The position numbers and the translations under genes are program-made. The notes under the pieces were generated by a model, which was given only the letters and a program-made list of their open reading frames with translations, was not told the origin of the DNA and ran no database searches. A stretch of DNA of 64,000 bases, taken from the IMG/VR virus record IMGVR_UViG_3300031992_000076, positions 1 through 64,000 of that record; one strand, 5' to 3'. This stretch comes from a virus (Duplodnaviria; Caudoviricetes). Each line of letters begins with the position of its first letter. Position 1 is the stretch's first letter. Below, one piece after another: positions 15,832-25,447 of this stretch.

Positions 15832-16278
15832 TTATTTTTCTCCAGTTGATCCGAATCCCGCACTACCTCTATCTGTATCGTCAAGATTATCAACCACATT
15901 AAATTCAATATTAAGATATGGCTGAATAATTAATTGAGCAATACGCTCCTGAGGATCAATATACTGAGTTTCGTCGCTGTCATTATGTAGAGCTACGATA
16001 ACAGGACCTCGATAGTCTGAATCAATAACCCCGATGCAATTTGCGGGACGCAAGCTTCGCTTTGTTGCAAGTCCGCTTCGAGCATATATACCCCCAAAAT
16101 ACCCTTTAGGAATTTCTAAAGAGATTCCCGTATCTACTTTGACTGTTTGATGAGCGGGAATGCAGATTTCTTCATCAGAAGCTGCATATAAGTCCATCCC
16201 CGCAGCTTCAACACTTCCTCTTGTGGGAATCTTTGCCAGTTTATTAAGTAATTTAATATTTACCTCTGTAACTATCAA
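15832..16278 (-). CDS. dut: dUTPase (trimeric)
   Basis: AAGMDL, ARSGLA, GVIDSDYRG, RIAQLII and RGSAGFGSTG motifs. Confidence 0.95.
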   Translation of the reverse strand: MIVTEVNIKLLNKLAKIPTRGSVEAAGMDLYAASDEEICIPAHQTVKVDTGISLEIPKGYFGGIYARSGLATKRSLRPANCIGVIDSDYRGPVIVALHNDSDETQYIDPQERIAQLIIQPYLNIEFNVVDNLDDTDRGSAGFGSTGEK

Positions 16279-16867: not shown

Positions 16868-17233
16868 TTATGCTTTAACAATTCCAAATGTGTAATCAAA
16901 GAAGTAATAAGCAAAATTCTCTTTTGTCTCAGGGTCTCTAATCCAAATCTCATAATTACCATCCTTTTGTTTTTCTATATCTAATACTTCTCCTCTATTT
17001 AATAGTGTTTCCACCATTTCTTTAATAGAGCCTGTGGTTGTTAATAATATAAATACAGTATAATCGCTTCTTTCTTTACACAAAAGCATCCATGTTGTTG
17101 ATTTAGCTTCAGTAAAGATATCCTTAATCATATTGCCAACTTTATTCTGTAAAGCAATTATATCAAGCGGTTTTTCTTTACCATAAGCTTGTTTATTAAA
17201 ATCATATAAATTACCAAGTATAATATCTGCCAT
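16868..17233 (-). CDS. Hypothetical protein, 121 aa
   Basis: AAGGAG RBS; own promoter. Confidence 0.7.
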   Translation of the reverse strand: MADIILGNLYDFNKQAYGKEKPLDIIALQNKVGNMIKDIFTEAKSTTWMLLCKERSDYTVFILLTTTGSIKEMVETLLNRGEVLDIEKQKDGNYEIWIRDPETKENFAYYFFDYTFGIVKA

Positions 17234-17256
17234 TTTTTCTCCTTTATTATATAAAT

Positions 17257-17285
17257 ATTATAACATAAATTTTTAAATTTGTCAA
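17257..17285 (-). promoter_or_regulatory. SigmaA-type promoter with extended -10, representative of about 15 similar minus-strand promoters (-10 boxes at about 17257, 25488, 28883, 34201, 36442, 36892, 39764, 39852, 41882, 41974, 46297, 51567, 52266, 53982, 55448, 63413)
   Basis: TTG(A/C)(C/A)N-N17-TATAAT, mostly with TG at -15/-14, in AT-rich intergenic gaps upstream of RBSs. Confidence 0.8.
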
Positions 17286-17773
17286 ATACCTATATAATTC
17301 ATATGATGAATACGCTGATTTGTTGAGCCTCTCCATTTTAAGGTTAAATCTTTTTGTTCCTTAATAAAAGGCCCATCTATCAAAAAATTTATTTTACTTA
17401 AAATAAAATTAATTGTATCATTATTCTCTTTTTGTAAATCTTCTAATAAATATCCAGTCCAAATAAAAATTTTAATATGTGGGAATCGCATTCTCACATA
17501 TTTAATAATATCTTTAACTAACTCCCTATTTTCTGGGCAAAGAGGCTCTCCGCCTAAAATAGATAAATTTCTTTGCACTCCATTTGCAACAAGAGCCATA
17601 CAAATTTGTTCTTTTATGTTTTCTGGAAGCGGGAAGCCACCTTTAAAATTCCATGTTTCTGGATTAAAACATCCAGAACAATGATGGGGACATCCTTGCA
17701 CCCAAAAAGATACACAAATGCCCTCACCATTTACAACATCATTTTTATTTAATGCCGCATATCTATACTCCAT
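17282..17773 (-). CDS. nrdG: Anaerobic RNR activating enzyme (radical SAM); likely start MEYRY at 17773
   Basis: VSFWVQGCPHHCSGC (CxxxCxxC), SILGGEPL, FLIDGPF, WRGSTNQRI. Confidence 0.95.
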   Translation of the reverse strand: MEYRYAALNKNDVVNGEGICVSFWVQGCPHHCSGCFNPETWNFKGGFPLPENIKEQICMALVANGVQRNLSILGGEPLCPENRELVKDIIKYVRMRFPHIKIFIWTGYLLEDLQKENNDTINFILSKINFLIDGPFIKEQKDLTLKWRGSTNQRIHHMNYIGI

Positions 17774-18911
17774 TATTTTTTTCTCCCATTTGAAGTTTTT
17801 TGCTATGAACATAGCGGTCTTCAACTTCTGCTTGTTTACCTAAATTAAAAGAAGATTTGTAATCTCCAGTTAAATACCCTGTCACTCTACGTAAATGTTG
17901 TATATGGCTGCCGCCGCATTGAGGACAGGTATCATTAATTAGTCCTGTATATCCACAATCTTGACATAAATCACTGGGTACGTTTAAAGCGAAATAGGGG
18001 ATATCTTTATCCATCGCATAATTTACAATAGTTTCGAGAGCATCTATGTTATCTAATATAGCACCTTCAAGTTCTACATAAGTAATACATCCCGCAGAAC
18101 TGTATCCTGTCAATTGAGATTCAATATCAATTTTCTCAAAAGGAGAAATTTCTTTCCAGACGGGTACATGCATGGAATTAGTAAAATATTCTCTATCACT
18201 TACATTAGGGATTTCTCCATATTGAGCTTTAAATTTCTGCATACTAGTATAGCAGAGGTTTTCAGCTGGAGTCATATATACACCAAAATTAAGTCTATAT
18301 TCTTCTTTAAACTCGGCACAACGGTCTTTAAATAATTGCTCTATCTGTTTAGCCAACCTCATACCTTTTTCTGTTGTGTGATCACATCCTATAAGAATTT
18401 GAAGTGTTTCGGCTAAGCCAATTTGACCTAATGCAAGTGTGCCATGCTTTAAAGCGCTACGAATACCTTCTTCTGGAATATATCCTGCCATTACATTATT
18501 TTCATACATAAATTTTGCGGAAGATGGATCTTGACTACATATATATTCAAAACGCTCAATCAATCCATCTTTAGTGTCATGAATTGCTTCATCAAGAAGT
18601 TCCATAAAATCTGTTATCAAATCTTTTATATTATCATTTGGTCCAGCTTCTTTTAAAGTTTTATTATAATATTCTTTTGCTTCCATGGCTATCGTTGGAA
18701 GAATTATAGTTGCAGGACATATATTACCTCGTCCATCTTTTTGAGCAGCAGAAATATAATTATCATATAAATATCCTGTTTCTATTACTGATTGAATATT
18801 CATTTGGTAGGAATTGAACGCGTTAATGTCTGCCCCATTCTGGGTTCTGCATCCCATGGTCGAGAACAATTCTACCGGAGTCTCGGTCTGTTTAATTCTT
18901 ATTTTTTTCAT
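17763..18911 (-). CDS. nrdD: Class III RNR NrdD, C-terminal piece (382 aa); own RBS AAGGAGG, start ATG about 18911 (alternative 18917)
   Basis: Contains FSTMGCRT (finger-loop Cys), DGRGNI, TPAENL, Zn ribbon CQDCG…CPQCG and glycyl-radical RRVTGYL. Confidence 0.9.
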   Translation of the reverse strand: MKKIRIKQTETPVELFSTMGCRTQNGADINAFNSYQMNIQSVIETGYLYDNYISAAQKDGRGNICPATIILPTIAMEAKEYYNKTLKEAGPNDNIKDLITDFMELLDEAIHDTKDGLIERFEYICSQDPSSAKFMYENNVMAGYIPEEGIRSALKHGTLALGQIGLAETLQILIGCDHTTEKGMRLAKQIEQLFKDRCAEFKEEYRLNFGVYMTPAENLCYTSMQKFKAQYGEIPNVSDREYFTNSMHVPVWKEISPFEKIDIESQLTGYSSAGCITYVELEGAILDNIDALETIVNYAMDKDIPYFALNVPSDLCQDCGYTGLINDTCPQCGGSHIQHLRRVTGYLTGDYKSSFNLGKQAEVEDRYVHSKKLQMGEKNNGV

Positions 18912-19455
18912 TCTCATAATCCTCCTTAAACTTCCAAATATAACCTCCAGCAGTTTTTTGTTTTCCATGAAGCACGGTTGAAATGCCACCTTTCCAAATA
19001 TTATTTTTTTCTCCTGCTTCAAGAACACTATCATATTCCGCAATAAAATTACCTTTTAAATCAAGTTGCACGACAGGTTTTTTAGGAGGTCTACCTTTAA
19101 AACCATTAGCCTTCGCGGATTCATATTGATGTTGACGAGCAAGAGGAAAAGAAACATTTTCTGCATGAGTACACCATCTTAAATTATTTACATTATTATT
19201 TAATTTATTGCCATCTATATGGTCTACTTTATTTCTACCTAATTTAATATCTTCTTCGGTTTTTGGAATAAAAGTTTCAGCAACTATTTTATGTACCATT
19301 CCAAAACTTAGGGCATAATAGCCCCAATCATTAATTTTTAACTCTATTAAGTTTCCATCTCTTTTTATGTTGCCAAAATTAGAAACTTCCCAAGTACTAG
19401 CATAAGGATGCTTATCATCTTTTAAATCTCTAAACACTTTCCATATTTCTTTCAT
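18892..19455 (-). mobile_element. Free-standing HNH homing endonuclease (NUMOD4-HNH-NUMOD1/IENR1-type), 187 aa, inserted in nrdD
   Basis: KEIWK…WEVSNFGNIK; VHKIVAETF…VDHIDGNKLNNNVNNLRW; KKPVVQLDLKGNFIAEYDSV…AGGYIWKF; RBS GAGGAGG lies inside the last nrdD-N codons. Confidence 0.9.
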
Positions 19456-19456
19456 A

Positions 19457-20833
19457 TTAAGCATCCTCCTCTTCGTAAATTTCAAGCATTAAAATATTTT
19501 GTAATTCAGGATTTTCTTCTAATCTTTGAATTAAAATACTATATTGACTTTCAGATAAAGAATTTATATATTCTTCTTTTTGTTTTCTATCATAGCTTAT
19601 CCAATCTTTCTGCATTTGAACATCGCAGTTCGCGTAATTAGGATACAATCTCTTGGCCGTAGATTCAAGAGCTAATCTATATAAATCATAATTCGGGTCA
19701 CCAGGTTTGCGATTCACACCACTCATACATTGGAATATTGAACAAGGGAAGATAGGAGTTTTATGGAACTTGCCCACACCCTTTATGCTTCCTTCAAGAA
19801 GAGCTTTTATTACCATTCTACCCTCGGGAAGGGTGCATGTACCAAAGTTGATACTTGTGAACGGGAGCTGATTTCCCGACCTAGATTGGAGAGTATTGAG
19901 GTTGTGAAACATTCCCTCAACTGCCTGCTGTGTTTCTTTAATTGTCATATCCATAGCATATTTATATACTTTGGGAAACATTTTATATTCTGGGGCATCA
20001 ATATTCATTTCTTCTGCAGATTTCCAAGTATCTATAACTCCATCACTTGTTTCTTTAAATATACTTGCATCTTCTATATAATACATTCCATCTTTGAAAT
20101 GCTTTCTAAAGCTTTTTCTAACATATGGAACCATAGTCCAATCTAAATGAGTCGCAGCGACTCCGCCAAATTGCTGTAGAGACTGAAGCTGAAATATCAC
20201 AGCTATAAGTTGAAATGCGGTGTTTACACTATTTGCAGGACGTACATCTGTTTGTCTTGTATTAAAACCTTTTGCAAGTAAATCATCAAAAGGGATAGAA
20301 AGACAGTTATGATCACCGAGTGCATAATCTGATAAATCATGAATATAAATTCTATTATTTACATGATTAAATTTTGCTTTTTCAGATACGCAATTATCAA
20401 GTGCATATTCTTTCATTAGTACAGAGTCAGCTTCTCCTTTGCGCCCCCCAAAACTATGTTCATCAAGATTTGCATTTTGATTTTGAACATTCGTGGCTTG
20501 AAGTTTTTCTTTGATAACCTCCATCATATGGTTATTCCATTTACGAACTTTATCTCGATCATGGCGGTATTCAATGTAGGCAGTTGCTACATCTTTTCTC
20601 TTTGTAGACATAAGTCCATGCTCAACAAGAGTTTGAATATCATCAATAGTCAGTTCATTGGGTAAGCCACTCATATATCCTTCAATATAATCTGCAATAT
20701 TTTGAGCCTTATCTTCTGCATATTCAGAAATATCTCCATCTACATCTTTAAAAGCGGCAAGAACAGCATCTTTAATTTTTTGTGGATTAAATAGTTGGCG
20801 AGTACCATCTCTTTTTATAATATAAAAATCCAT
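19457..20833 (-). CDS. nrdD: Class III RNR NrdD, N-terminal piece with ATP-cone (458 aa; start MDFYIIKRDG)
   Basis: ATP-cone, NANLDEHSFGG, YIHDL…HNC, QSLQQFGGV, QAVEGMFHNLNTLQSRSGNQLPFTSINFG, RLYPNYANCD. Confidence 0.9.
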   Translation of the reverse strand: MDFYIIKRDGTRQLFNPQKIKDAVLAAFKDVDGDISEYAEDKAQNIADYIEGYMSGLPNELTIDDIQTLVEHGLMSTKRKDVATAYIEYRHDRDKVRKWNNHMMEVIKEKLQATNVQNQNANLDEHSFGGRKGEADSVLMKEYALDNCVSEKAKFNHVNNRIYIHDLSDYALGDHNCLSIPFDDLLAKGFNTRQTDVRPANSVNTAFQLIAVIFQLQSLQQFGGVAATHLDWTMVPYVRKSFRKHFKDGMYYIEDASIFKETSDGVIDTWKSAEEMNIDAPEYKMFPKVYKYAMDMTIKETQQAVEGMFHNLNTLQSRSGNQLPFTSINFGTCTLPEGRMVIKALLEGSIKGVGKFHKTPIFPCSIFQCMSGVNRKPGDPNYDLYRLALESTAKRLYPNYANCDVQMQKDWISYDRKQKEEYINSLSESQYSILIQRLEENPELQNILMLEIYEEEDA

Positions 20834-20901
20834 TAAATTTACCTCCCTAATTATTATTATTTTAAGGTTTGTAAATATATTTGAAAAACACAATATATTG
20901 T

Positions 20902-21144
20902 TTAACTATTTTTGTCCTGTTGAAGTTCTAGCATACGACGGCAAATATACCATTTAGCTTTTTCTAAATCTTCAATTTCTTTAGAGGGATCTTTTCGTCC
21001 AGCTCTAGAAATATATTTAATAGCATTACCAAGACAAAAACCCAATTCCCAATCTTCAATTACCTCAATTGGTTCATATTTACGATTAGCCGTATAATGA
21101 GCAGGTTTATTTATATTATCATAATTTTGATTTACATTATCCAA
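20902..21144 (-). CDS. DUF3310-like phage protein, 80 aa
   Basis: NKPAHY…EPIEVI…FCLGNAIKYI.RAG.K…EDLEKA.WY. Confidence 0.85.
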   Translation of the reverse strand: MDNVNQNYDNINKPAHYTANRKYEPIEVIEDWELGFCLGNAIKYISRAGRKDPSKEIEDLEKAKWYICRRMLELQQDKNS

Positions 21145-21445
21145 GAATATCTTCTCCTTTTTTGGTTATTGTAGCACCTAAAATTTTTTGTCCACAAAAC
21201 ATCATATTTAAAATACCATCTAAATCATCAAATAAAATTTCTTCTTTGCGTCCCTTACATCCAATAGACATATAAGAACTCCAGCTCATTGGCTGTATAA
21301 TAGATAAATTCATTTTTTGAGATTGCTTTAAAATATTATTAGCTGCTATTTCTGTAGTGGTGATAATTCTTGCATTGGTAAAATGACTTAATATTATTAA
21401 TGAAGTTGTTTTTCCTTGACCTCTAAATAATTCAATTATTTTCAT
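21137..21445 (-). CDS. Small P-loop-like protein, 102 aa
   Basis: FRGQGKTT Walker-A-like and ILFDD Walker-B-like segments; too short for a full helicase. Confidence 0.55.
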   Translation of the reverse strand: MKIIELFRGQGKTTSLIILSHFTNARIITTTEIAANNILKQSQKMNLSIIQPMSWSSYMSIGCKGRKEEILFDDLDGILNMMFCGQKILGATITKKGEDILG

Positions 21446-21505
21446 TTGTTTTCTCCTATGCGGCGGCCAGTTAGAGATCTTAGGGTCTCGTCCCGGCGCC
21501 TGCTT

Positions 21506-24500
21506 TTATTCATCATAATCATCTTCAAAAATTCCATTTGAAGTGGTAGCTCTTTCATGTTGTAACTTTATATCTGAACCAATAATATCTGTAATCAAAT
21601 AGAGCTGGTGCCCGATAGTTCTACTATATGTTTTTGCTACCATAGTATCATCTCGCCGAAATCCAGTAATCATGAGTTTTGTACCTCGTTTAAACCATCC
21701 GCGTTCGACAATTTTTTTCGTTCCATCAGGTTGAAGTTCACTAATCTGGCGTTTAAACATACTATAATATTCTCCAGTAAACTTAACATTCACTACTCCA
21801 GTTGTAGTTAAAAGACTTATACTATGACGATTATCATTTTTTGTAAGTACTGTTCCTGCTATTCTATATAATTTATAAATAGGAATATTATTATTACCAC
21901 GCTTCCAAAAATATTCCACTTCTTCAGACTGAAGTTGATTAAAATCTACTATATTATATTTTTTATTATCTACATCTATTAATTCATGAGGGCCGTGATA
22001 AAAGCATAATGCATCCATCTCCCAGGCGGAAGGTGTTCCCGCAGCATATTTTTTCCAAACTTCCATAAATAATATATCATTATATTTATTTAATACATAA
22101 GTTTGATTTTCTTTTAACCAATCTCGTGCTTTATCCATATATATCTGATAAATGTTATCCCATTCCCGCTGATTAATGCACATCTTTTCATCTATTGTTT
22201 TTATTTTATCTGAATATGCAGATAAAAATTTATTAATAAAATCAATAGCCGTATTATCTAAAATAAACCATTCTTTATACTTAAATGCTTTTAAATATTT
22301 ATTAAAATTAAATATTCTTATTTGCATTTCTAATTCTTTAGGAACTAAACCATGCAAAATTAAACCATTAAAATTCTGAAGTGTTAATCTTTTTTTAGGT
22401 TCACATATTTGAGATATATAATATGCCATTATTTCTTTTCTATTGTTTAATTTAGTTTCTATTTCATCAAATGCCCCACTTTTAATTAACATTATCATTG
22501 GAACTTTTGTAAGCGGGCATCGAACCATGAAATCTTTAATTCCAGTATAAGGGCGCCCGCCCTTTATCTTCTCTATTGTTTCAGCATTTACATTACTTAA
22601 TGCTTTTAATCCATAAAGAATTCTATTATTTGCTATATCTGGTTCGAATCCATAATCAGATGTATTTATATTAACAAGAGAAACTTCAATACCATGAGAA
22701 GTGATTTCACCAATAGCTTTAGCCACTTTAGCAAAATCTGTACCTTTCTCTTTTTTCTTTACAGTTCCTTCTTCATCTTCATCATATTGATCATTATCTT
22801 CTTCAAGACTACCGCTATTAACTACTAAACAAGCCGTATCCCAATATATAGGATTCCATCGTGTAGCTAAATATGCAGTTTGATATCCGATGAATGAGTA
22901 TGCTGTTGCATGAATCACGCTAAAAGAATATCCCATCTGGGGTCCTACACCACATTCCCAAATATATTTGCCTAACATGGCGGATGATGCCTGATTCATA
23001 ATTTTTTCTTTTAATTCTGGAATTTTAGACATTTGTTTTTTACCAACTATTTTTCTTGCCGCATTTGCTTCAGCAAGAGTAAAGTGACAAATATCTTCAT
23101 CCATAAGCATCATCATTAACTGCTCCTGTGAGGGTGGAACTCCATATGAAGATTTGAAGTATGGTTCAACCGCTTTAATTTCATTATCAGTTAAATGAGC
23201 TTTTTTCATTTCATCATACCAAAGTTTAATATTATTCTTGTAACGAATATATTTATCCATTGGCGTTTCTGCACCTTTTTCAGCAGTCATAAGTCGCATC
23301 AAACCATTTGCGTCACTTAACTCAATCATGTTCTTTGGTGCAATTTTCTTAGCGGCTTGGCTTCCTATATCTGAATCAAACTGAAAGATATTTAAAATCT
23401 TTCCTTCTTGAATATTCTTCCATGTTGCTTCATCTTCTATATCTAAAACATCGGGATGAAAGTATTTATTATATACTTCTCTTAATGTTAAATCTTTTTC
23501 AATTTCTCCATTCTCTTGTAAAAACTTAATACATTGTGCAATCTTATCCTGTACTTCTGTTAACAAGAAATCGTACTTCGTCATACCTGCGGCCTCCGCC
23601 ATATGCAAGTCGTACTGAGTTGTAATTTCCCCATTTGGCGCTTTCATGAAACAACCAAATTCATATGGATCTTCATCAAACAAAATTACACCAGATGCAT
23701 GAATACCTCTACGAGAGATAAGTCCTTCAATACCTAACATAATATCAAGAAGACCTGGATAATTATTAACTTCATTAATAAAAGTCGTAACTGGCTTTCT
23801 ATCTTTTTCTGGATTGCCATATATTACTTCTTTTAACGTCCATAAAAATCCTCTCTCTTGTGGAATGAGTGAACTAAGATACTGCGCTGTGTCAACATCA
23901 ATTCCATTAGGATAATTTTCAGAACGATAACCTCTACAACTTGTTAAAATCGTACTCTTTGTAGTTTCGGTCCCATATGTGGCGACCATCGTGCATCCCA
24001 GGTTCTTGCGAGATATTTCATCTATTTCAGGTTTAAAATTCTTACCACGCTCTTCTTTAATTTTCTGAATGATAATAGGTCTTTTACTAGGACATAAATC
24101 CAAATCTATATCACCTAACTCAACTCGTTCTTTATTCAAATATCTCCAGAATGGGAAGTTCCATTTCAAGGGGTCGAGCTGTGTAACACCTAATAAATAA
24201 TGATTAAGACCAGAACAAGATGAACCACGTCCCGCACCTACTATCGAACCACATTCCCAAAACATATCTACATAATGAGCAAGAGTTATAGGATAAAGAA
24301 AAAGGTTAGTATGAAGTTTTTCGCTAATAACTTTTTTAATATCAGCTTCTTCTTCAAGTCTTTCTAAATATCTTGTTTCAAATAAATTTTTTTCTTTTAA
24401 TTTATTTATACAAGTATTTACCCAATATCTTTCAGCTTTATCATCAGAAGAAAACATTGAATTAAGAGTAGGATATTTTTCTGATGCTTTACCCATTACT

Positions 24501-25447
24501 TTTTTAGGATAATCTTGCACTTCAACACTAGGTATAGTTTGAGGATGAGTTAAATCATACCATTCTATTTTATCATATATCTCCATACTATTAGCATACA
24601 TAATATCAATTAAATCACCAATAGAAGGAGCTAAATTTTCTTTTATATCATCATCAGTTTGAAGATAAGCATATTCATAAAACTGTGCGGTTTCACGCTC
24701 TCCACCTTTTGAATTAAGATATGCTTCATGTACATATCTATCTTCCTTTTTAAGATAATGAGCATCAGAACCAATTACCATTTTACAATTAAAAACTTGA
24801 GCTAATTCTACAAGTTTTTTATTCACGATAATTTGATCTTTACTAGCTCCAGGAGCACACTCTATATAAAAATCATTATTAAATAAATTTTTACACCACA
24901 ATACAAAATTGATGATATTCTGTTTTGCTTTCTCTGCTGTTTCATTATCACCAATTTTTCTTGCATTTTCCATTATTAATGTATTTCCAGATAATTCTCC
25001 GCCTATACATGCGGAAGTTGCAATTAAATGACCTGGATTTGCTTTAACTACTTTCTCAAGATCTGATTTTAAAGTTGGGACTCTTTCAAGTCCTCTATCA
25101 AAATATGAATTCATCCAAGCTAAAGATGATAATTCTCTTAATTGACGATGTCCTATTGCATCTCTAGCTAGAAGAATAAAATGCCAATATTTTTGACCAG
25201 ATTCTCTAGTATCTGTAAGATATATTTCATTTCCTAATGCTATTTTAAAATTAGGATTTGTTTCTCTTAATCCAGCCGCTATTTTATTAACCTCGATATG
25301 GCAACCAAGAATCTCGTGATCTGTAATTGCTATTCCAGCTAACCCAATTTCAACCGCCCTTTTTATTAACTGATCTGGACGATTGATACTGTCAAGTAGT
25401 CTTATATTGCTATACATCGTGTGCGAGTGCGGTTCAAACCTAAGCAT
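21506..25447 (-). CDS. dnaE: DNA polymerase III alpha subunit (family C), 1313 aa, with intact PHP domain
   Basis: PHSHT…AITDHE…GNEIY…HFILLA…SDAHY; GAGRGSS; DIDLD catalytic motif; RGIHASG; KYDFL; GYSFS..HATAYS. Confidence 0.95.
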   Translation of the reverse strand: MLRFEPHSHTMYSNIRLLDSINRPDQLIKRAVEIGLAGIAITDHEILGCHIEVNKIAAGLRETNPNFKIALGNEIYLTDTRESGQKYWHFILLARDAIGHRQLRELSSLAWMNSYFDRGLERVPTLKSDLEKVVKANPGHLIATSACIGGELSGNTLIMENARKIGDNETAEKAKQNIINFVLWCKNLFNNDFYIECAPGASKDQIIVNKKLVELAQVFNCKMVIGSDAHYLKKEDRYVHEAYLNSKGGERETAQFYEYAYLQTDDDIKENLAPSIGDLIDIMYANSMEIYDKIEWYDLTHPQTIPSVEVQDYPKKVMGKASEKYPTLNSMFSSDDKAERYWVNTCINKLKEKNLFETRYLERLEEEADIKKVISEKLHTNLFLYPITLAHYVDMFWECGSIVGAGRGSSCSGLNHYLLGVTQLDPLKWNFPFWRYLNKERVELGDIDLDLCPSKRPIIIQKIKEERGKNFKPEIDEISRKNLGCTMVATYGTETTKSTILTSCRGYRSENYPNGIDVDTAQYLSSLIPQERGFLWTLKEVIYGNPEKDRKPVTTFINEVNNYPGLLDIMLGIEGLISRRGIHASGVILFDEDPYEFGCFMKAPNGEITTQYDLHMAEAAGMTKYDFLLTEVQDKIAQCIKFLQENGEIEKDLTLREVYNKYFHPDVLDIEDEATWKNIQEGKILNIFQFDSDIGSQAAKKIAPKNMIELSDANGLMRLMTAEKGAETPMDKYIRYKNNIKLWYDEMKKAHLTDNEIKAVEPYFKSSYGVPPSQEQLMMMLMDEDICHFTLAEANAARKIVGKKQMSKIPELKEKIMNQASSAMLGKYIWECGVGPQMGYSFSVIHATAYSFIGYQTAYLATRWNPIYWDTACLVVNSGSLEEDNDQYDEDEEGTVKKKEKGTDFAKVAKAIGEITSHGIEVSLVNINTSDYGFEPDIANNRILYGLKALSNVNAETIEKIKGGRPYTGIKDFMVRCPLTKVPMIMLIKSGAFDEIETKLNNRKEIMAYYISQICEPKKRLTLQNFNGLILHGLVPKELEMQIRIFNFNKYLKAFKYKEWFILDNTAIDFINKFLSAYSDKIKTIDEKMCINQREWDNIYQIYMDKARDWLKENQTYVLNKYNDILFMEVWKKYAAGTPSAWEMDALCFYHGPHELIDVDNKKYNIVDFNQLQSEEVEYFWKRGNNNIPIYKLYRIAGTVLTKNDNRHSISLLTTTGVVNVKFTGEYYSMFKRQISELQPDGTKKIVERGWFKRGTKLMITGFRRDDTMVAKTYSRTIGHQLYLITDIIGSDIKLQHERATTSNGIFEDDYDE

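Follow-up and report, generated by a model that had tools for sequence, protein, structure and literature searches.

We analyzed a stretch of 64,000 nucleotides (nt) comprising positions 1 to 64,000 of the IMG/VR virus record IMGVR_UViG_3300031992_000076 (hereafter, the window), which has a G+C content of 31% and is part of a 78-kb record estimated to be ~52% complete. On its minus strand lie four tightly packed genes in the order nrdD-N, HNH, nrdD-C, and nrdG, where nrdD, the gene of a class III ribonucleotide reductase (RNR), is present as two pieces with a gene for an HNH homing endonuclease between them. The features of this locus are as follows (pI, isoelectric point; dN/dS, ratio of nonsynonymous to synonymous substitution rates).

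19457..20833, minus strand: nrdD-N, 458 amino acids; ATP-cone (residues 4-95), first half of the NrdD barrel, HNC cysteine C177, 54-residue tail (405-458)
19460..19621, minus strand: tail of the N piece, residues 405-458; charge -8, pI about 4; three helices and a terminal strand LEIY predicted
19465..19471, minus strand: GAGGAGG Shine-Dalgarno sequence of the HNH gene, within the tail codons; left copy of a GGAGGAT direct repeat
18892..19455, minus strand: free-standing HNH homing endonuclease gene, 187 amino acids, I-HmuI-like (1U3E match, residues 17-177); dN/dS 0.04-0.11
18921..18927, minus strand: AAGGAGG Shine-Dalgarno sequence of nrdD-C, in the HNH 3' end, 9 nt before the ATG at 18911; right GGAGGAT copy
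17763..18911, minus strand: nrdD-C, 382 amino acids; 15-residue basic head, TMGCRT finger loop, second half of the barrel, Zn ribbon, RRVTGYL
18867..18911, minus strand: head of the C piece, MKKIRIKQTETPVEL; charge of the first 8 residues +4; KIRI predicted as a beta-strand pairing with LEIY of the tail
18741..18806, minus strand: insertion of ~22 residues after the finger loop, only in alleles with the tail/head module; predicted helix
18731..19651, minus strand: mobile unit, ~100% identical to contig L004 against a background of ~70%; from RLYPNYAN to KDGRGNIC
17282..17770, minus strand: nrdG, intact gene of the radical SAM activase; 8-nt overlap of its start with the stop region of nrdD-C

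The first-pass annotation had placed the end of nrdD-N 1 nt before the HNH gene and the HNH stop across the start of nrdD-C, and the coordinates bear this out. nrdD-N, which has a GGGAGG ribosome-binding site, stops at TAA 19459-19457, and after a 1-nt gap the HNH gene starts at ATG 19455; the HNH stop lies at 18894-18892 and the nrdD-C ATG at 18911 (MKKIRIKQTETPVELFSTMGCRT), giving a 20-nt overlap in which the last 10 HNH codons run over the nrdD-C start. The ribosome-binding site of the HNH gene (GAGGAGG) is at the same time the codons for the tail EEE, the last glutamates of NrdD-N; nrdD-C has its own AAGGAGG (18927-18921), and the nrdG ATG (17770) overlaps the end of nrdD-C by 8 nt. AAGGAGG, a spacing of 9-10 nt, and ATG before nrdD-C are kept in 4/4 loci read at the DNA level. 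In the related contig L047, a 1-nt indel alters the overlapping HNH C-terminus and throws an upstream ATG out of frame, and the nrdD-C start is still kept. The rarity of AAGGAGG (8 in 128 kb, both strands) and the off-frame stop frequency (0.092) exclude chance as the source of the arrangement. A scan of the locus for promoters and terminators returned signals at background level; the four genes are probably co-transcribed as one operon. A 9-bp stem (CUGCUGGAG/CUCCGGUAG; window 18868-18953, minus strand; -17.1 kcal/mol, z-score -1.4) brackets the Shine-Dalgarno sequence and AUG of nrdD-C, and its CUGCUGG/CCGGCAG is kept in L047; it may have a translational role or be due to chance.

From the Pfam matches, NrdD-N carries an ATP-cone and the first part of the NRDD family (PF13597; profile positions 2-249, E 2e-59), and NrdD-C carries the rest (254-562, E 6.5e-78) together with Gly_radical (PF01228), so the two pieces span the NRDD barrel end to end with a clean break at profile 249/254. 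The cysteine of the HNC motif (C177, invariant) is in the N piece, and the C piece has the TMGCRT cysteine (C21, invariant), the Zn ribbon CQDCGY...CPQCG (CxxC...CxxC), and the glycyl-radical motif RRVTGYL. Directly downstream of nrdD-C, nrdG encodes a Fer4_12 (E 9e-43)/Radical_SAM protein. This distribution of motifs over two uninterrupted pieces, with an intact nrdG, is the one proposed in the first-pass annotation. The middle open reading frame (ORF) matched HNH_3 (E 9e-9) and I-HmuI_NUMOD-like (E 6e-7), and its protein can be aligned over its full length with I-HmuI (1U3E; residues 17-177 with 8-171, E 3e-9). Among solved structures, the nearest is the Prevotella copri NrdD (8P23), to which the N piece aligns over residues 9-406 and the C piece over 458-738; this puts the break at about residue 406-410, just before the finger loop with the thiyl-radical cysteine. 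No class I or II RNR large subunit was found in the 78-kb record, which is itself only ~52% complete.

Alignment with unsplit NrdD, which the first-pass annotation had suggested for mapping the insertion, places it after D404. We compared the intact junctions of 16 relatives (15 from IMG/VR and the more diverged Phass-1), and in the 15 IMG/VR relatives the junction is a 15-residue linker, typically RLYPNYAN(C/V)D-WSGNAGYDKNDPRTY-FSTMGCRTANG. In the window, D404 is followed by 54 extra residues up to the stop (VQMQKDWISYDRKQKEEYINSLSESQYSILIQRLEENPELQNILMLEIYEEEDA, residues 405-458), and the C piece opens with 15 extra residues (MKKIRIKQTETPVEL) ahead of FSTMGCRT; the tail and the head thus stand in for WSGNAGYDKNDPRTY of the intact alleles, in which neither extension is present. 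The alignment with relatives also revealed a 22-residue insertion right after the finger loop in split alleles. The tail has a net charge of -8 (pI 4.05) and is conserved as ...EENPELQNILMLEIY.. across 23 N-piece clusters; the first 8 residues of the head carry +4 (pI 11.3), and its MKKIR/KIKQ is near-invariant in 17 C-piece clusters. With this mini-domain of tail and head alone, a Pfam search gave no credible family (EABR, at E 0.024, was below the cut-off) and an ESM-atlas search returned only NrdD fragment clusters (0.89-0.91). The standard nrdD allele at the presumed HNH target reads …DWSGNAGYDKNDPRTYFSTMGCRTANG…. Next to the insertion, cassette alleles have MGCRTQNGADI and standard alleles MGCRTANG(W/Y)DI (window 18831-18866, minus strand; C-piece residues 16-27), changes which could shield the carrier allele from its own endonuclease.

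The split arrangement with the HNH gene was found in four other contigs (L003/L048, L004/L045, L029/L046, and L047). The HNH proteins of these four are 100, 99, 97, and 86% identical to that of the window, whereas their NrdD-N pieces are only 76, 76, 57, and 62% identical. Between the window and L004, the DNA is ~70% identical except for a block of ~920 bp at ~100% (18731-19651), which starts at RLYPNYAN, ends at KDGRGNIC, and holds the tail, the HNH gene, the head, the finger loop, and the 22-residue insertion. In a tree of those NrdD parts that lie beyond the block, the four split alleles occur at scattered places between intact and intron-bearing ones. The patchy distribution, the excess identity, and the sharply bounded, co-converted flanks are the classic signature of homing, and these sequence comparisons indicate that the cassette is mobile and has spread horizontally between diverged nrdD alleles. 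A megablast of the locus against phages gave no matches.

A search of 5.8 billion proteins with the tail only returned 24 clusters, 23 of which are NrdD fragments of N-piece size, and a second search returned at least 17 C-piece clusters starting MKKIR/KIKQ. These clusters come from JGI, ENA, Logan, and NCBI assemblies, and one NCBI/ENA contig has the same order of N, HNH (187), C (377), and nrdG. Such recurrence in independent assemblies rules out an assembly error, a concern raised in the first-pass annotation, and the pieces show no extra stops or frameshifts in any of the clusters (23 for the N piece, at least 17 for the C piece). Alleles lacking the HNH gene were checked at the DNA level, and the resulting series is as follows.

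Window: split, with HNH; ...EIYEEEDA, stop / HNH / MKKIRIKQ...
L064: split, HNH deleted, with the two GGAGGAT repeats (both ribosome-binding sites) as the exact limits of the deletion; N piece ends ...EIYEEDYENEKNKN, stop
L060/L061: re-fused in frame, L064-type junction with A6; ...EIYEEDYENEKIRIKQ...
L059: re-fused by a different in-frame deletion; ...EIY-GG-KIRIKQ...
L062: diverged fused form, 51% identical over this region; ...EIVEDENGVDQIKVSQ...
L063: diverged fused form, 61% identical over this region; ...DVVDGRPVVRQ...

In L064, the C piece retains its Shine-Dalgarno sequence and ATG, and its ORF shares 20 nt, at an A7 run, with the ORF of the N piece. The re-fused L059 and L060 and the fused L062 and L063 all retain tail and head, and the re-fused alleles keep all catalytic motifs. 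The HNH-less L060 and L064 derive from HNH-bearing alleles, since L060 contains HNH codons and the Shine-Dalgarno sequence with ATG in L064 is improbable by chance; L062 and L063 may either have been fused from HNH-bearing alleles or represent the reverse direction. At the A7 overlap (L064:4850-4880), deleting a single A or shifting by +1 yields precisely the L060 (A6) fusion, and transcriptional or ribosomal slippage on this run could give some full-length NrdD in L064. This series refines the first-pass annotation: the extensions are not junk but form a conserved mini-domain, which moves along with the endonuclease and is still there once the endonuclease is lost.

As a single-chain surrogate for the two-chain enzyme, we used the AlphaFold2 (AF2) model of the natural fused allele P0022, a chain without the N-terminal third. 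Its overall predicted local distance difference test score (pLDDT) is 68, which is moderate with the N-terminal third missing, and that of the module is 85-96 over residues 81-120. The model has helices at 67-86, 89-101, and 103-108, a strand at 111-114 (LEIY), a GG turn, and a strand at 117-120 (KIRI), so the endonuclease gene would sit at the turn of the predicted LEIY/Gly-Gly/KIRI hairpin. The remainder of the model fits NrdD structures (Z 18.4 against 8P23 over 331 aligned residues), in keeping with the module and the 22-residue helix as insertions. In the model of the N piece alone, helices fall at 416-425, 428-440, and 442-448, of which only the helical tendency of the tail was used. The fold of the mini-domain and its hairpin are thus predictions at the level of these models.

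We read the locus as an nrdD cut by a free-standing I-HmuI-type HNH gene, the two NrdD chains of which would reassemble non-covalently through the tail and the head, and we put the probability of this reading as a whole at about 0.78. The HNH gene would have cut nrdD just upstream of the codons of the finger-loop cysteine, with neither intron nor intein, and one operon transcript would give rise to four separate proteins (NrdD-N, HNH, NrdD-C, and NrdG). NrdD-N and NrdD-C would join non-covalently into one barrel, with NrdD-N contributing the ATP-cone, the specificity/substrate side, and one active-site cysteine, and NrdD-C contributing the thiyl-radical cysteine, the Zn ribbon, and the glycyl-radical loop activated by NrdG; such a two-chain NrdD would probably be functional. 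The reassembly may be aided by the mini-domain, in which the acidic three-helix tail ending in the LEIY strand would have the basic KIRIK head as its antiparallel partner, the LEIY and KIRI strands pairing between chains in the split enzyme. The tail, HNH gene, head, finger loop, and insertion would travel as a ~920-bp cassette by homing and gene conversion, with RLYPNYAN and KDGRGNIC as homology borders. The endonuclease could later be lost by deletion between the GGAGGAT (Shine-Dalgarno) repeats, which would leave a still-split gene, and the loss of one base in the A7 run would re-fuse this gene in frame.

Several points weigh against this reading. The dN/dS of the C head is about 0.67, from few sites that are dual-coded with the HNH gene, indicating weak constraint. 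The AF2 model of the N piece alone is poor (pLDDT 64.5), and the hairpin prediction comes from one AF2 model with a shallow alignment. Most of the purifying selection on the bulk of the pieces predates the split, so only the cassette-linked segments report on the split state. The mini-domain either came with the endonuclease or was already present in an NrdD subfamily. The window cassette is ~100% identical to the cassettes of L003/L004, and its arrival in the window genome may therefore be recent. Finally, no nrdG was found within 3.5 kb downstream of the L064 allele.

On the source of the mini-domain, we consider it a possibility of somewhat less than even odds that the endonuclease brings with it a module for protein complementation, made of an acidic three-helix tail and a basic strand zipping up as a hairpin. 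It is somewhat less probable, and in our view doubtful, that the mini-domain is an older, lineage-specific surface insertion of an NrdD subfamily and that the HNH gene landed in its hairpin turn, the enzyme still being of two chains. The module is a confidently predicted compact fold whose hairpin turn would be the least disruptive site for a cut, and the diverged fused alleles P0025 and P0026 (51-61% module identity) have no remnant of the HNH gene or of a Shine-Dalgarno sequence, all of which would suit an older insertion. Against it, HNH C-terminal codons (DYENE) remain in P0015, as do the Shine-Dalgarno sequence and ATG in L064 and L060, so at least these derive from HNH-bearing alleles; P0026 (EDENG) and P0025 (DG) have the same lengths as HNH-deletion products. 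Moreover, the module was never seen apart from the cassette context and moves with the HNH gene in the 920-bp block.

A dead or dying nrdD, which the endonuclease insertion inactivated and whose pieces have not yet decayed while the phage uses the host RNR, would fit a recent insertion and the missing nrdG next to L064, and phage nrdD is often fragmented (PMC3653736; PMC12880540); nevertheless, we consider it unlikely. Relaxed selection on the halves, named in the first-pass annotation as a sign against a split enzyme, is not what we observed. By the Nei-Gojobori method, with the window compared to L047 and a cassette dS of about 1.0, dN/dS was 0.20 for N-piece residues 428-458 (tail), 0.15 for C-piece residues 16-62 including the finger loop, and 0.11 for the HNH gene. 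A decaying gene would also sit poorly with the lack of extra stops and frameshifts among the clusters, with the Shine-Dalgarno sequence and ATG of nrdD-C kept despite the L047 indel, with the retention of an nrdG overlapping the end of nrdD-C, and with the full set of catalytic motifs in the re-fused alleles.

Far less probable is a cryptic group I intron, self-splicing and with a core beside the ORF or overlapping it, by which the HNH region is excised and a single nrdD mRNA regained. In the T4 nrdD (sunY) intron, the core is placed 5' of the ORF. The first-pass annotation had excluded an intron because all the DNA is coding and leaves no room for a core; the conclusion stands, but this argument is insufficient alone, since a sunY-type core lies on one side of the ORF and exon frames often run into introns. 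We also set aside the silence of Rfam: an E-value scan of window 17000-21500 gave no match at E <= 10, and neither an E-value scan of the locus of the Thomasclavelia phage TR-TP1 nor a gathering scan of 13 related loci gave a group I intron, so the evident introns of relatives were missed too. An intron would have company in the four unrelated intron-like insertions of relatives, which lie a few codons away inside the MG/CRT codons, with stop-filled flanks and a second exon without start codon; the TR-TP1 junction shows U at its 5' splice site and G at the end, a rule which a TAT/...TTG/TTC joining in the window would meet by chance. The window arrangement, however, is unlike all four of these classes. 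Only ~97 + 25 nt lie outside the HNH ORF, and the 97 nt from the conserved exon to the HNH start fold at -10.8 kcal/mol (z -0.16), no better than shuffles, compared with -70 kcal/mol (z -3.0) for the ORF-less 217-nt insert of L032 at a neighbouring site. Both flanks are open and evolve as protein: between L047 and the window, PELQNILMLEI differs by 5 synonymous changes and no replacement, and the single difference in length is one codon, in frame. In addition, the C piece has a strong, conserved Shine-Dalgarno sequence and ATG, fused alleles keep tail and head as translated sequence, and in L064, where the ORFs overlap by 20 nt, nothing is left to splice. The unstructured flanks, the selection on them at the protein level, and the conserved start of the C piece exclude an intron, as far as sequence can tell.

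The least probable alternative, a degenerate or atypical split intein of tail and head ligating the chains by protein trans-splicing, could appeal to the 'fractured genes' with split inteins around a free-standing endonuclease described by Dassa et al. (PMC2677866), to such an origin being raised by Crona et al. for the tails of phage Aeh1 (PMC3045599), and to the charge complementarity also known in split inteins, but it is excluded by the lack of any Hint/intein Pfam match in the window proteins or the mini-domain, by a tail and head of ~69 residues (about half a minimal Hint fold), by predicted helices and a hairpin in place of the Hint beta-fold, by a head ending ...PVEL with Phe, and not Cys/Ser/Thr, at +1 and no terminal His-Asn (the missing intein termini had been recognized in the first-pass annotation), and by the Cys preceding the tail (C403) being V/I/L in intact alleles. 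A programmed frameshift or bypass in the window was considered and rejected, the N stop and C start being 560 nt apart with a selected ORF between them.

This phage nrdD family is a hot spot of insertions (L001, L007, L013-L015, L024, L029-L037, L041, L042, L059, and L060). The breaks fall at N-piece residues ~168-179, 223, 313-330 (HNL/NTLQSRSG), and 363, at MG/CRT, and at C-piece residues 163 and 216, and the insertions carry ORFs of the HNH, GIY-YIG, or NUMOD3 type, or none; none of them was recognized as a group I intron by Rfam 15. In TR-TP1 (PQ571309), L001:5231-6117 is probably an nrdD group I intron with an HNH ORF. Its second exon is annotated from an internal Met (L001:6207), the GCRTANG frame begins at about L001:6118 without a start codon, and joining ...ACC AU / G GGU UGU gives back ST-M-GCRT.

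Aeromonas phage Aeh1 reportedly has a class Ia RNR arranged as NrdA-a / mobE / NrdA-b, a description that goes back to Friedrich et al. in 2007. By analogy, the window locus is best seen as the class III counterpart of this arrangement, and Aeh1 is the right precedent, as the first-pass annotation had suggested. In both, an RNR large-subunit gene is cut in the barrel near active-site cysteines by a free-standing HNH gene without intron or intein, the endonuclease ORF overlaps the downstream fragment, the fragments bear oppositely charged, unique C- and N-terminal extensions, and they are translated separately from one operon (a presumed one here). In Aeh1, mobE overlaps nrdA-b, and activity requires the tails of opposite charge that accompany the mobE insertion (PMC3045599). 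Crona et al. (2010) predicted similar tails on other fragmented genes, which would however be overlooked (PMC3045599). Activity is demonstrated for Aeh1, and we infer it for the two-chain enzyme of the window. The differences are that the window enzyme is of class III (glycyl-radical, activated by NrdG), that its tail is acidic and its head basic (the inverse of Aeh1, with pI 10.4 and 3.8), that the cut lies before the finger-loop cysteine and not after it, and that the extensions are predicted to form one small folded domain. A hairpin sequestering the ribosome-binding site at the HNH start, as with mobE, was looked for and none was found (z +0.69). Unlike the single case of Aeh1, the window cassette occurs in dozens of diverged phages with signatures of homing and a series of HNH-less split and re-fused alleles; what is new here is a mobile and widespread cassette, a module left behind after endonuclease loss, and a natural allelic series.

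Other known systems share parts of this arrangement. The T4 nrdD (sunY)/I-TevII intron and the intron-like insertions of relatives (TR-TP1, L007, L013-15, L024, L030-37, and L041-42) place an endonuclease in the same gene within a few codons of MGCR, but those have structured, stop-filled, non-coding flanks and a second exon without a start, whereas the window has translated, selected flanks and a Shine-Dalgarno sequence and ATG of its own. I-TevII is, moreover, a GIY-YIG and not an HNH enzyme (PMC2988022). PMC2814812 contains no information on nrdD by which the T4 intron could be placed. I-HmuI, the intron endonuclease of the DNA polymerase gene of Bacillus phage SPO1 (PDB 1U3E), has the same combination of an HNH nuclease with NUMOD-like DNA-binding modules but is intron-encoded, while the window HNH gene is free-standing within coding sequence. 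The fractured genes of Dassa et al. (2009; PMC2677866) likewise consist of two ORFs with an endonuclease gene between them and charge-complementary ends; the window extensions differ in having no Hint domain, no nucleophile, and no His-Asn and in being too short, so that ligation is not expected. In a 2026 study of the Jug jumbo gut phages, 95/104 genomes had an nrdD broken up by introns, endonuclease genes, or inteins, and one nrdD junction without splicing reads was left unanalysed (PMC12880540). Those jumbo phages infect Bacteroides, and no tails, independent starts, or cassette mobility are described for them (PMC12880540). Phage surveys report split nrdD from introns, inteins, or unexplained fragmentation and no endonuclease-only, tail-bearing case (PMC3653736), and our literature search found no description of a class III genes-in-pieces enzyme.

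The nrdD locus lies in a block of genes for nucleotide metabolism and replication, which includes, on the minus strand, a dUTPase-like ORF (window 15832-16278), a small ORF resembling DUF3310 (20902-21144), and a gene for a 1313-residue PHP/DNA polymerase III alpha-like protein (21506-25447). Related contigs repeat a comparable set of DNA polymerase III alpha, nrdD, and dUTPase, sometimes with nrdG and RuvC.

The concept of an endonuclease that fragments an essential enzyme and also supplies an interaction-tail 'antidote' previously rested on one phage (Aeh1) and one enzyme class, and the window locus would be a second, independent case in a mechanistically different RNR, in which one chain bears the radical-storage glycine and the thiyl cysteine and the other bears the allosteric and substrate side. 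Dozens of natural variants, of which Aeh1 has none, make the cycle of endonuclease gain, loss, and scar and the role of the tails directly testable, and the locus offers a natural split point and zipper for the engineering of two-chain glycyl-radical enzymes. This observation also emphasizes caution in annotation, as 'partial' nrdD ORFs lying next to each other in phages of the gut and rumen are not necessarily pseudogenes or unrecognized introns. If the endonuclease does carry its own complementation module, tail-HNH-head would join introns (RNA splicing) and inteins (protein splicing) as a third type of self-neutralising mobile element, one that can enter a glycyl-radical enzyme at its catalytic core. 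In that case, the module would persist as a new internal domain after the endonuclease is lost, and such elements would be a source of lineage-specific enzyme insertions.

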